A stretch of DNA of 64,000 nucleotides from a virus (lineage: Duplodnaviria > Heunggongvirae > Uroviricota > Caudoviricetes), in IMG/VR virus record IMGVR_UViG_2526164690_000025, one strand, 5' to 3'. Position 1 is the first letter of the stretch, and each line of letters opens with the position of its first letter. The position numbers and the translations under genes are program-made. Positions 1,553-4,400 of this stretch are shown piece after piece. Below the pieces are notes generated by a model that made no database searches, was not told where the DNA came from, and saw nothing but the letters and a program-made list of their open reading frames with translations.

Positions 1553-2803
1553 TTATGCAAGCCTCACAATATAGTTAAATGCGATGTTTTTTACGGTGTT
1601 TTCTTCGTTACCCGTAGCGTTAACGGTGATGGTGTGTCCGTGGGGACCAATAATGACAGAATGGGCATGAGCACCAATGCCGATAGTGTGGTTATGGGCA
1701 CCGATATATACATTGTGAGCATGCTCGCCTGCGCTCGACGTGGTACCAGTACCTAACGCAGCGTTAAAACCGGCTGATACACCATTCCCCGCGCCAGTGT
1801 GACCAACAGGTATATTGTGTGAATGATTTCCAGCGCTATTCGTAGTTTTTGTGCCGTAATCAAATGAACTGGTCGTTTTAGTACCGTAATCAAACGACGA
1901 TGTGGTTTTCGTCCCCAAATCCGTACTGGATGCGCTGGCGCTGTGGGTGTGCGATTTAATGCCGTCCTGTTCCTGAGACAATACGGCACGACCACTGCCG
2001 GGCTTGCCCTTAATCGTCCAGCCACGCATATCAGGAATAACGCCTGACGGATAAGCCGCTGCAAGTTTCGGGTATGCAGATTTGTCAAAAGTCTGCCCCT
2101 GCATCAGGGCATAACCAGACGGAACGGTATCTGATGGCCACGGGATTGGTGCGCCGACTGGGTAGCTTTCTGGTGGAAGATTTTTCGAGGTATAAACTTC
2201 TGCCCAGTCTTCCTCAAAACCATAACCGTCTCTTGAAGAACGGTAGAACAGACCACCATTTCTGTAATGCGCCTTCATCTGCAAGGTCGGGCAACTTCCG
2301 ACTCCGGTATAGAAGTTAACCAGAATATAGCTGTCGGCAGAGCGAATGACATTGTAAGCGCCTGATTCGGCATTCCAGGGAACGCCCCCATCCGCATCGG
2401 CATACGTATCCGTTGCTCTTCTGGCAAAAGCAGCAACATGCGCAGCGGTTAAAGTGATATCAGTAGAACCATCAAACGAGACGCCATTGATAGTACATGC
2501 TGTCTGCAACTTGGTCGCTGTAGCCGCATTACCAGAGGTGTCCTGATCCCCTTTGGCATTGACGCCGGGAATTGAATCTTTTGACGTATAGACCTGCGCC
2601 CATTCAGACCAGTTGGCAGAATCAGTATCACGCCGCGAACGGATATGTACGGGCGCATGGTCACCACTCGTGCCACTCCAGCCAATGAATAACTCACCTT
2701 CGCCAGCAGCGGTGGCACCTTTAAGGTGAAGCACATTGCCATAGGGGAAGGTAGCCATTGTTGTATGCCTCATACAGCTGAATCCCGGATGTTCCCTGTG
2801 CAT
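1553..2803 (-). CDS. tail fibre protein, distal (receptor-binding) part
   Basis: 416-aa ORF with Gly/Thr/Ser-rich repeats and C-terminal His-rich HxH repeats ([24 protein letters not shown]) typical of long tail fibre tips; overlaps upstream fibre ORF in another frame. Confidence 0.7.
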
Positions 2804-4400
2804 TCGCCTCTAGGGCCGTTACGCGACCGCGAGATACCAGAGTATTGATATTAATGTCAGCCGAACCATCGAATCTGACGCCATTAATGTTTATGGCTGT
2901 TTTTAATTTCGTCGCGGTGTCGGCGTTCCCTGTCAGCGCCCCGGTGATCCCACCGTTGAAAGTCTGGCGTGCACTCCATTTGTTAGCCGTGCTCAACAGG
3001 GGGATCTTTTCACCGCTGGTACCGAGTTCTCTTAAACCAAGGTATTGGATAACAGCAAGAACGCTTGTTTTGGCCAGAATATCGCGACCAACTGACGTTA
3101 AGTCAGTCTGAGAAACAGTGTCTGTACCGGTAAAGTACGGCAATTTATTTGCGCCTGTCGCAAGACCAGCAAGCGCGGTTAAAGTTGCATCAAGTGGCTG
3201 TTTCCCTGCCAGCGCATTTGTCATTGTTGTCGCAAAGTTCGGGTCATTGCCCAGTGCTGCTGCAAGCTCATTCAGGGTATCAAGAGCTTCAGGTGATGAG
3301 CCGACCAATGCAGAGATAGCAGCCCGTACGTAAGCAGTCGTAGCGATCTGCGTATTGTTTGTGCCCTGTGCAGCCGTAGGCGCAGTAGGGACACCCGTTA
3401 ATGCAGGGCTTGCCAAAGGCGCTTTGAGAGCCAAGGCATTGTTGATAGTTGTGCTGTAATTCGGGTCGTTATTGATCGCAGCCGCTATTTCTTTCAGCGT
3501 ATCCAGTGTGCCAGGCGCACCGTTGATAAGTGCAGTTATAGCTGCCTTAACAAAGGCTGTATTTGCGATCTGCGTGCTGTTTGTACCTTGCGCTGCCGTC
3601 GGCGCGGTTGGCGTTCCTGTCAGACTCGGGCTTTCTATTGGCGCTTTGGTATCAGCCAGATCTTTTATAGACTTAACAGCTTTAGGGGTAGCCGCCATTG
3701 TTTCGCTGTCGCTGTTAGTTGCGCTACTGAGCTGAACTAATCCCTTTTGCGTTGTGCTTGCATCCTGCGCCGTATACTTGCTTTTCGCCAGATCGTAGGC
3801 TTTTTTAACTGCCAGCGAACTTGCAGCAACATCACTTCTGGTACTGGTTACAGAGTCTGAAATATCAATGCCGATCGTGCGGTTGATACGCTCGGATGTA
3901 TCAATCATCTCCTGAGTAATGGCAGATACACCAGCAGGGATATTCACCGTACAAACAAGCAGCTCCCCATCTCCTAACTGATATGAATCGGTATAGGTTC
4001 TGGCAACAAATTCAGCCGCATGAATATGTGACGCGGTATTCACCTGATAGGTATCTTCTCCAAGGAGGTATCTTCCCTTCAGCACAATTGCATATTTCTT
4101 GCCTGCACTAAGTGCAAGAGAAATATCCTTACGTTGCTGAATAGTTACCTGGTAGAATTCACCAATATCCACCGACGCCGCGCCTGCGGTTTTATCACCA
4201 TCCACTGAGGTGATTAACAGGTTCATCCCACCGCCAGGCTTAGGTAAGAAACCGGCATAAAATCCCGGGTCAACAATCCCCCTGAATTTTCGGTTTAGCG
4301 CGGCTGACAGATATGGTTCGTGGTATTGCACATCAGCCACCAGAGCCAACGACTCGGGTGATGGGTAAGTAACTGATGTAACAACTGTAACGTCATTCAT
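2721..4400 (-). CDS. tail fibre protein, proximal part (probable start MNDVTVV at 4400)
   Basis: ORF 2721-4487; repeated 'PT(A/G)PTAAQGTN(N/S)TQIA(N/T)TA(F/Y)V' fibre motifs; contains cix-like site; together with 1553-2803 gives about 1000 aa. Confidence 0.7.
3027..3052. other. cix/gix-like 26-bp invertase crossover site inside the fibre gene
   Basis: ttctcttaaaccaaggtattggataa resembles the Gin/Cin-type crossover site (TTCCTGTAAACCGAGGTTTTGGATAA as recalled); located at a constant/variable junction of the fibre gene. Confidence 0.4.

Follow-up and report, generated by a model that had tools for sequence, protein, structure and literature searches.

The tail-fibre gene S of the 64,000-nucleotide (64-kb) window analysed here, which is a P1-family (Punavirus) plasmid prophage, carries what its sequence identifies as the phage P1 crossover site cixR, together with a break in the reading frame downstream of it. 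The best explanation overall, which we hold with moderate confidence, is that cixR is an orphan site in an invertase-free fibre lineage and that the frame break is an error of the draft sequence. On the evidence of the 64 kb, the host-range switch is locked, because the window has one crossover site and is without an invertase, an enhancer or an alternative Sv'/U' cassette. The first-pass annotation had described the switch as disabled or locked; this holds in that nothing in the 64 kb could invert the site, but the IS10 element to which it pointed is not the reason, and the frame break is no evidence for it.

The Fibre Gene S Carries the P1 cixR Site

The window and phage P1 have the gene order 16-R-S-chaperone in common, and nucleotide identity to P1 over positions 2464–5400 is 98.3–98.6%. 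Gene R (4412–4846, minus strand; tail-fibre structure or assembly) is intact, is 100% identical over 144 aa to the R protein of a relative, and stands in the P1 order R-S-U. The proximal part of S (2721–4400, minus strand) comprises Sc and the start of Sv, contains Phage_fiber_2 repeats, and encodes 559 aa up to a premature stop; its product is 97.8% identical to residues 1–550 of S from phage Ro157c2YLVW. The distal, receptor-binding part of S (1553–2758, minus strand; Pfam Collar and gp37_C) lies out of frame: the mechanical open reading frame spans 1553–2803, the gene caller's start is the ATG at 2758, and the 401-aa product is 99.7% identical to residues 554–949 of the intact 949-aa Ro157c2YLVW S protein, in frame -1. 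The adjacent tfa gene (989–1552, minus strand; fibre assembly/chaperone; Pfam Caudo_TAP, E = 2.5e-39) is the functional analogue of P1 U. S therefore has the Sc-like N-terminus of a P1-type S, with R before it and a chaperone gene after it; the single unbroken frame from Sc to the receptor-binding tip is absent from the assembled sequence.

At 3027–3052 (plus strand), the 26-bp sequence TTCTCTTAAACCAAGGTATTGGATAA occurs once in the window, with 0 occurrences expected in shuffled sequences. It consists of two 12-bp half-sites flanking a central AA and matches the annotated cixR of phage P1 (NC_005856) at 26/26 positions; the P1 crossover point projects between window positions 3039 and 3040. 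The site occupies S codons 450–458, the same S codon position as in the P1 C-segment system (cin, cixL, cixR, Sv/U, Sv'/U'), and so places a 26-bp Din-family crossover site at the joint between the constant (Sc) and variable (Sv) parts of the fibre. On this identity, we regard 3027–3052 as the authentic P1 cixR site. The first-pass annotation had recognised a Gin/Cin-type 26-bp site at the point where such phages switch fibre C-termini; both observations are borne out, the Cin-family site being specifically P1 cixR. Its persistence within S is explained by its being coding sequence at the Sc/Sv joint.

The arrangement of 12-bp half-sites around a 2-bp core is shared with other Din-family systems, namely the Mu G segment with gin, Salmonella hin/hix and e14 pin. 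The window site is the P1 allele rather than gix, hix or pix; gixR presumably differs from it at about 5 of 26 positions. Unlike the gin, hin and pin systems, the window has neither an invertase nor a paired site.

The Remaining Parts of the Switch Are Absent from the Window

A mismatch search for a second cix-like site, covering both strands of the 64-kb window and allowing up to 7 mismatches, returned none, so the second, inverted crossover site of a Din-family switch is missing from this stretch; as a control, the identical search on the P1 locus recovered cixL at 4 mismatches. No homologue of Cin was detected when the P1 protein was searched against the window by tblastn (no match below E = 5), and the segment accordingly has no serine invertase gene beside it in the window. 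The first-pass annotation had seen neither a partner site nor an invertase nearby and had proposed a search for both; run on the 64-kb window by cix mismatch search, tblastn and blastn, that search found neither, with about 27 kb of the replicon lying on other contigs.

The P1 lydC-cin-Sv'-U' region, searched by blastn, matched the window solely through the 0.6-kb repeat. The Fis-dependent recombinational enhancer, which in P1 lies inside the 5' part of cin, is likewise missing from the window: positions 1–6000 of the P1 locus, which contain the annotated enhancer, matched by blastn only in the 0.6-kb repeat. The window holds a single fibre-tip and chaperone cassette, with no alternative Sv'/U' cassette in the opposite orientation.

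The 0.6-kb repeat itself, which as an inverted pair bounds the P1 C segment, has one homologue in the window (2464–3050), following the crossover site as in P1. It encodes the Sv part common to Sv and Sv' and matches both P1 copies, at about 96% for locus copy 2312–2900 and inside a longer alignment at 98.3% for locus copy 6001–6589. The comparison with P1 is therefore one of near identity in Sc (about 98–99%) and of difference beyond it: the window has one cix site and one 0.6-kb repeat, is without cin, enhancer, Sv' and U', and beyond 2464 has a fibre tip and chaperone of the lambdoid stf/tfa type, not those of P1.

The Switch Was Probably Lost in the Ancestry of the Fibre Cassette

The distal part of S and tfa are those of three fixed-fibre STEC elements: the complete plasmids pO111_2 (NC_013370) and pE2855-2 (NZ_AP018798) and phage vB_EcoM-Ro157c2YLVW (NC_050153). 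Indels aside, the fibre tip and chaperone (993–3017) are about 99.9% identical to all three, and a 508-nt stretch of tfa recurs with 100% identity in many P1-like plasmids of STEC. Like the window, these relatives have a single cix-like site in S and lack the switch machinery; unlike it, they encode S as one intact 949-aa frame and have no IS10 in tfa or gene 16. The cix-like site of each plasmid has a single mismatch, and the relic in the relatives reads AAATC where the window has AAACC. Searched by tblastn with P1 Cin, the two plasmids gave no Cin homologue. Relative to P1, they are missing about 2.87 kb (lydC, cin, cixL, Sv' and most of U'), and their P1 homology passes from the LPdar promoter region straight to the last 232 nt of U'. 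The cassette is followed in both plasmids and the phage by an acetyltransferase gene, the 232-nt U' remnant and lydA, and within the stretch read Ro157c2YLVW has the same layout as the plasmids.

The distal fibre and chaperone cassette (993–3017) thus belongs to the pO111_2/pE2855-2/Ro157c2YLVW lineage. Relative to P1, this lineage is without a segment of approximately 2.87 kb that contains lydC, cin, cixL, Sv' and the 5' end of U', and it has a lambdoid-type fibre tip with its tfa fixed in one orientation. The cixR site within S would be an orphan relic, since one site without an invertase permits no inversion. We infer that host-range switching was lost by ancestry and not through IS10, the absence of cin and cixL beyond the window being read from the relatives: complete relatives with the same cassette, and with no IS10 there, already lack lydC, cin and cixL. 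The IS10 that the first-pass annotation had noted where partner site and invertase would be expected is accordingly not the reason for the loss.

S itself is a recombinant of P1-type and pO111_2-type parts. From 3018 upward it is P1-like (Sc and cixR), and below 2981 it is pO111_2-like (the fixed tip); at about 70 positions in Sc the window departs from the relatives and resembles P1 instead. The junction lies 22–58 nt from the crossover point and fits a cassette exchange by homologous recombination at the conserved 0.6-kb repeat region. This fits better than Cin-mediated joining at cix, which was rejected on the grounds that the switch in similarity falls between 2981 and 3017 and not at 3039/3040. 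No plasmid with the same recombinant S was found, the top match being 98.5%.

Because the P1-like Sc and the perfect cixR mark the plasmid as a recombinant, its unseen part may differ from that of the relatives, and the possibility of an intact switch has to be weighed here. Under this alternative, cin, cixL and an alternative Sv'-U' cassette would lie beyond IS10 on another contig, and the window would show one of two orientations. The perfect P1 site and P1-like Sc are compatible with this, as is the fact that the window starts at a contig end, with the P1 position of cin outside it; moreover, many P1-like plasmids with a P1-type S have the 0.6-kb repeat twice. We nevertheless consider it improbable. 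Positions 993–2980 are a pO111_2-type cassette at about 99.9% identity, and all examined relatives of that type (two complete plasmids and one phage) have no cin or cixL after the cassette. The assembler also passed straight through the 0.6-kb repeat, which would be unexpected if a second, inverted copy existed.

An orphan site in an invertase-free lineage, the reading we prefer, has parallels among other P1-like plasmids. Venturini et al. 2019 (PMC6906374) described P1-like plasmids whose Cin switch is impaired. In that study, the cin/C-segment/tail-fibre region is a recognised hot spot, 'RD-3', marked by truncation of cin or loss of the C segment, frequently in association with insertion sequences, and host-range switching was presumed lost. 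Unlike the window, pJIE250-3, pSvP1 and pTZ20_1P of that study keep a cin-related gene or fragment and carry other rearrangements, with IS26, IS2 and ISEc84.

IS10 Marks a Contig End and Disrupts Gene 16

Base 1 of the window is base 1 of a 72-kb draft whole-genome shotgun contig, AIGH01000015.1 (GCA_000249835.2), which ends inside an IS10 element. What lies 'nearby' therefore ends at an assembly gap and not at a biological boundary, and with about 27 kb of the replicon outside the window, the whole replicon cannot be judged from it. The element at this end (1–992, plus strand) is the right-hand 992 bp of IS10, cut by the window and contig start and aligning to 5740–6731 of an intact copy further along. 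The draft contig broke in this repeat, and the IS10 consensus at the contig end may itself be poor. Inside the element, 2 indels and 3 substitutions separate the fragment from the intact copy. The first-pass annotation had placed a degenerate IS10 where the switch would be expected; a fragment does adjoin the chaperone gene there, but it is the end of a draft contig.

The fragment is inserted in the last 5–6 codons of the chaperone gene, and homology to the relatives begins at 993, directly adjoining it. The tfa product is consequently 187 aa against 192 aa in the relatives, its C-terminal codons being replaced by IS10 sequence; over residues 1–186, it is 98.4% identical to Tfa of Ro157c2YLVW. 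No record spanning the IS10/tfa junction was found among phages, PLSDB or complete E. coli genomes. The IS10-clipped Tfa, the proximal S product and the distal S product are each on record solely in AIGH01000015.1, where record coordinates equal window coordinates.

The intact copy (5403–6731, plus strand, the same orientation as the fragment) is a complete 1329-bp IS10 with terminal inverted repeats, an intact 402-aa transposase frame (5510–6718) and a flanking 9-bp target duplication, CGCTCAAGG. It lies inside P1 gene 16, a tail-tube gene, which it splits into 4925–5402 and 6732–7098 (minus strand). The prophage is defective in any case, because a complete IS10 with its target duplication interrupts this gene.

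The Frame Break in S Is Probably a Draft Error

The first-pass annotation had reported that the fibre reading frame changes between 2721 and 2803. This was confirmed: two minus-strand open reading frames, 2721–4487 and 1553–2803, overlap in different frames, and the change results from two single-nucleotide losses at 2745–2749. Judged against P1 Sv, P1 Sv' and the three relatives, the coding strand changes from GGCTACCCTTCCCCCTATGGC, as in P1 and pE2855-2, to GGCTACCTTCCCCTATGGC; one C is missing from a C3 run and one from an adjacent C5 run, and these two losses, which lie 4 nt from each other, shorten the sequence by 2 nt. No single contiguous deletion yields the window sequence. Eight codons past the break, translation meets a premature TAA stop (2721–2723, minus strand). 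If the losses were real, they would constitute a very recent null mutation, with S cut after residue 559 and the receptor-binding tip gone.

The shortened allele was found in no other assembly searched: neither 5,426 complete E. coli genomes nor 72,556 plasmids (PLSDB) contain it. As a control, the unshortened 44-mer was found in 125 plasmid records. Nor is S alone in being affected: the window has at least 8 single-base homopolymer contractions over 7 genes, S included. Six further 1-nt contractions, all specific to the window, interrupt gene 16, sit, an HTH gene, pmgG, a gene for a small membrane protein and a 67-aa open reading frame, the sites outside S being 6953, 11425, 18911, 22109, 39857 and 56805. 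An apparent frameshift at 16365, past the ant1 start, proved not to be disruptive; as in P1, the window has an ant frame (415 aa) that begins further upstream and overlaps icd. A comparison of 13,967 codons with an isolated phage yielded 320 synonymous and 125 nonsynonymous differences, with 0 nonsense changes, and general neutral decay was rejected as the main explanation on account of this synonymous excess and lack of nonsense changes. Gross nanopore-type homopolymer error was also rejected, since few of the long runs are altered (1–2 of 7–9 runs of length 7 and about 1 of 45 of length 6).

Two explanations of the break as a genuine feature were considered. The first is decay by homopolymer slippage, perhaps in a mismatch-repair-deficient host, of a prophage that the IS10 in gene 16 has already killed; S would then be a true pseudogene encoding a 559-aa stump that lacks the receptor-binding tip. 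Because the prophage is already dead by that insertion, real neutral frameshifts are plausible. The clean 9-bp target duplication attests to at least one genuine inactivating event, and tfa is clipped by a second IS10. Homopolymer changes are infrequent overall, with expansions among them (at 1552, 15893 and 38206); singletons in the window number 241 substitutions against 7 indels, a ratio that is not abnormal and taken alone may be compatible with real slippage mutations; and pmgG annotations are shortened in some relatives as well. Set against this are the codon comparison above and the fact that every disruptive event is a single-base contraction in a run. The affected genes are otherwise free of signs of decay: pmgG and the small membrane-protein gene have zero substitutions, a third has one synonymous change, and distal S is 99.7% identical to its counterpart. 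Over 993–2999, the window and pE2855-2 differ by 3 indels and 2 substitutions. The S break requires two independent hits 4 nt apart, in an allele that no other searched assembly shares. Frameshifts in other drafts of the source (DEC) collection were thought by their authors to be possible sequencing or assembly errors (PMC5592225). We regard genuine decay as possible but doubtful.

The second is that the overlapping frames are natural, either as a two-gene fibre whose distal protein is translated separately or as a fibre made by a programmed +1 ribosomal frameshift at CCC-CUA. With the two bases gone, the coding strand reads TAC CTT CCC CTA TGG, and the distal frame would be regained if tRNA-Pro slipped by +1 on CCC-C ahead of CUA; E. 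coli uses CUA rarely, and CCC-N sites are slip-prone. An ATG at 2758 is also preceded by GAGG 9 nt upstream. However, P1, P7 and the three examined cassette relatives have one continuous frame here, the overlap exists solely through the two missing bases, and the arrangement occurs in a single draft contig, while 125 plasmids carry the unshortened 44-mer. A distal fragment without Sc would, in addition, be unable to attach to the baseplate. A natural overlap is thus very unlikely. The related case, in which the missing C's are real and full-length S is made at a low level by +1 frameshifting on CCC-C before CUA, seems just as remote; YLPY would then replace YPSPY in S, and the plasmid prophage would carry a fibre allele that is leaky and not null.

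The frame break is most likely an artefact of sequencing or assembling homopolymers in the draft, an explanation in which we place fair confidence; the real S gene would then probably be intact, at approximately 949 aa. The break is no evidence of a disabled switch, as the first-pass annotation had taken it to be, the homopolymer losses being unique to one contig and an artefact being likelier.

Significance

The finding is ordinary and its biological importance small: the cix site and the architecture of S are already documented, as is the fact that P1-like plasmids frequently lose the Cin switch. It illustrates two cautions, namely that an orphan recombination site beside an insertion sequence at the edge of a window can merely mark a draft contig break, and that a homopolymer frame break in such a draft, without reads, should not be taken as pseudogenisation. 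Of minor interest is the recombinant S, which is consistent with the known role of the 0.6-kb repeat in the exchange of fibre cassettes.

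Identification of the crossover site in the tail-fibre operon

The minus strand at 989-7098 carries the tail-fibre operon of phage P1 in P1 gene order, comprising gene 16 (4925-5402 and 6732-7098, interrupted by IS10), R (4412-4846), the tail-fibre gene S (4400 down to 1553) and tfa (989-1552), a fibre chaperone gene analogous to P1 U. The remaining window, including sit, sheath, parAB, repA, dmt, ban, baseplate and pmg genes, matched P1-like plasmid prophages at approximately 98%. The best full-length matches to 993-5400 were P1-like plasmids from Shiga-toxin-producing E. coli (STEC) and phage vB_EcoM-Ro157c2YLVW (98.1-98.2%), and P1 matched 2464-5400 at 98.3%.

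A first-pass annotation had described a sequence resembling Gin/Cin-family crossover sites at the position where fibre C-termini are switched. This 26-mer (3027-3052) occurs once in the window, with 0 occurrences expected by chance, and is identical at 26/26 positions to the sequence around the annotated P1 cixR; when the P1 annotation is transferred, the crossover point maps to the central AA, between 3039 and 3040. Within the gene, the 26-mer falls in S codons 450-458, where the constant (Sc) and variable (Sv) parts meet. The stretch immediately downstream in the gene (2464-3050) is homologous to the 0.6-kb inverted repeat of the C segment in P1, and both repeat copies there, Sv and Sv', match it. 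Identity to P1, position at the Sc/Sv junction and the adjoining repeat homologue therefore bear out the cix-like identification and sharpen it: the site is cixR itself.

Partner site, invertase and loss of the switch

The absence of an inverted partner and an invertase, previously noted for the surroundings of the site, extends to the whole 64-kb window. A mismatch-tolerant scan of both strands returned no second cix site at up to 7 mismatches; the P1 locus, run identically as a control, yielded cixL at 4 mismatches. Using P1 Cin as the tblastn query, no homologue with E<5 was detected in the window, and blastn with the P1 lydC-cin (with enhancer)-cixL-Sv'-U' DNA matched only the 0.6-kb repeat. 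Taken together, these searches establish that in the visible 64 kb the cix site, the repeat and the tip and chaperone cassette each occur once, and that a recombinase is absent. cixR stands alone in the visible DNA, and the fibre-tip cassette is of the fixed type.

Window 993-2980 is essentially identical to the STEC plasmids pO111_2 and pE2855-2 and to Ro157c2YLVW, with two substitutions in 2 kb relative to pE2855-2. In all three relatives, S is a single intact 949-aa ORF followed by tfa. At this boundary the window has an extra T (coding-strand A; 1550-1554), giving TAAATG where 3/3 relatives have an overlapping TAATG; both ORFs are unaffected. Neither of the two complete plasmids, pO111_2 and pE2855-2, contains a Cin homologue, and each has one cix-like site, with one substitution. 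When the P1 map was aligned onto the relatives, homology ran through hdf-lydB-lydA and the LPdar promoter and then skipped to the final 232 nt of U', beyond which an acetyltransferase gene in AT-rich DNA precedes tfa and S; compared with the P1 arrangement, approximately 2.87 kb is missing, comprising lydC, cin, cixL, Sv' and the 5' part of U'. Because this DNA is missing in relatives sharing 993-2980, the lineage that donated the fibre tip had already lost the switch, without any IS10. P1-like plasmids often carry a changed cin and only part of the C segment, and host-range switching is then presumed lost (PMC6906374). The earlier proposal of a disabled or locked switch, with IS10 occupying the expected place of the missing parts, thus stands as regards the loss but not as regards IS10 as its cause.

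Recombinant origin of S

Every difference between the window and P1 in their shared region lies at or below 2980, whereas differences from the STEC relatives begin at 3018. Sc, cixR and 22 nt past the crossover are P1-type, and the remainder of S is of the pO111_2/pE2855-2 type. On this pattern S is a recombinant, with its junction at 2981-3017, 22-58 nt from the cix crossover towards the variable part. Lying near the crossover yet not at it, the junction is better explained by homologous recombination within the conserved repeat than by Cin action. No PLSDB plasmid shares the junction (best match 98.5%).

IS10 copies and the contig end

Three products, the 187-aa Tfa cut short by IS10 and the 559-aa and 401-aa fragments of S, are specific to this sequence: exact-protein look-up found each on record in one contig, AIGH01000015.1 (NCBI GCA_000249835.2; 72,226 bp), whose coordinates are those of the window. 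Since window base 1 is base 1 of this draft contig, the IS10 fragment at 1-992 marks the point at which the draft assembly ended within a repeat. With pO111_2 as a guide, about 27 kb of the replicon lies on other contigs, with cre, the darB region, lyz, ssb, the darA operon and lydAB, and the part outside the contig includes the exact P1 position of cin. The absence of a partner is therefore a result for the window and not for the whole replicon. Because the element is a mosaic, its part outside the contig might differ from the relatives; we give an intact switch a small chance.

A complete IS10 (5403-6731, or 5394-6740 with duplications; 1329 bp) with an intact transposase ORF and a 9-bp target duplication, CGCTCAAGG, interrupts the tail-tube gene 16 in the same orientation as fragment 1-992. 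Within the element, the fragment departs from this copy by two indels (A5 shortened to A4 at 80, one A gained at 493) and three substitutions; it may be a diverged copy, or reflect consensus noise from several copies at the contig end. Direct IS10 copies thus flank 16'-R-S-tfa (~4.4 kb) on both sides, and recombination between them could delete it.

The frame break in S

The two overlapping S ORFs are real in the window sequence. On the coding strand, the sequence GGC TAC CCT TCC CCC TAT GGC is shared by P1 Sv, P1 Sv' and pE2855-2, whereas Ro157c2YLVW and pO111_2 have CCACC for CCCCC; the window reads GGCTACCTTCCCCTATGGC. One C is lost from the run of three and one from the run of five, 4 nt apart, and no single contiguous 2-nt deletion yields the window sequence. 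The shifted frame reaches TAA at 2721-2723 after 8 codons. The distal 396 codons of S remain open and are 99.7% identical to an intact relative; ORF 1553-2803 is therefore the displaced 3' part of S and not a separate gene. A programmed arrangement is highly improbable.

We consider a sequencing or assembly artefact the probable explanation. The shortened allele was present in 0/5,426 complete E. coli genomes and 0/72,556 PLSDB plasmids, whereas the normal allele, queried as a control, was found in 125 plasmids; among the 153 billion gene positions covered by the protein look-up, both S fragments are called only in AIGH01000015.1. Six further window-specific 1-base contractions, all in runs of A or C, interrupt genes whose counterparts in relatives are intact: gene 16 (6953), sit (11425; 307 + 792 aa), an HTH gene (18911; 192 + 89 aa), pmgG (22109), a small membrane-protein gene (39857) and a 67-aa ORF (56805). 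Given the usual substitution-to-indel ratio, neutral decay yielding eight frameshifts should also leave several nonsense changes together with an excess of nonsynonymous ones. Over 13,967 codons compared with the phage isolate in the relatives' frames, there were 320 synonymous, 125 nonsynonymous and 0 nonsense differences, and pmgG and the small membrane-protein gene had no substitutions. This departure from the decay expectation fits purifying selection on the genes until now, which supports an artefact. From accession order, the source appears to be a draft from the DEC collection, in whose drafts frameshifts have been noted as possible sequencing or assembly errors (PMC5592225).

A real recent mutation is the less likely reading: the codon pattern and the confinement of the allele to one contig count against it, although several observations agree with it, in that altered homopolymer runs are a small fraction, a few runs are lengthened rather than shortened (1552, 15893 and 38206), and singletons comprise 7 indels and 241 substitutions, a ratio that is not unusual. 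Moreover, the bona fide IS10 with its 9-bp duplication had already inactivated the prophage in gene 16, so slippage mutations would be neutral. The frame change at 2721-2803 reported earlier is thus present in the sequence, but its meaning as a disabled switch is probably wrong.

Predicted consequences

With cixR alone, no inversion would be possible, and particles, if made, would have a single fibre specificity, from the lambdoid-type tip (Pfam Collar, gp37_C) and its chaperone. The assembled version of S would encode a 559-aa stump without a tip; with both C's restored, it would give a normal fibre of ~949 aa. Whichever version holds, IS10 in gene 16 should block tail formation, so the element probably persists as a plasmid only. 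None of this departs from known P1 biology.

Other features of the window

Central sit (tape measure/transglycosylase; 8887-12215) has 75-86% protein identity to a relative, a mosaic segment separate from the 11425 frameshift. Two icd-antirepressor modules are present (16140-17394 and 43830-45076); the first has a 415-aa ant ORF with an upstream start, overlapping icd, and the second shows ~79-84% protein identity to the relative's first module. Cargo ORFs at 14462-15526 and 19402-20106 replace Ro157c2YLVW genes and encode a DUF5384 protein, a weak TraT-like lipoprotein (under the Pfam cut-off) and a DUF3800 protein, the last also annotated at the corresponding place in pE2855-2. As in P1-like relatives, tRNA genes Asn(gtt), Tyr(gta), Thr(tgt) and Met(cat) lie at 38541-38787 and 40732-40807, close to a 13-bp insertion relative to Ro157c2YLVW at 39461.
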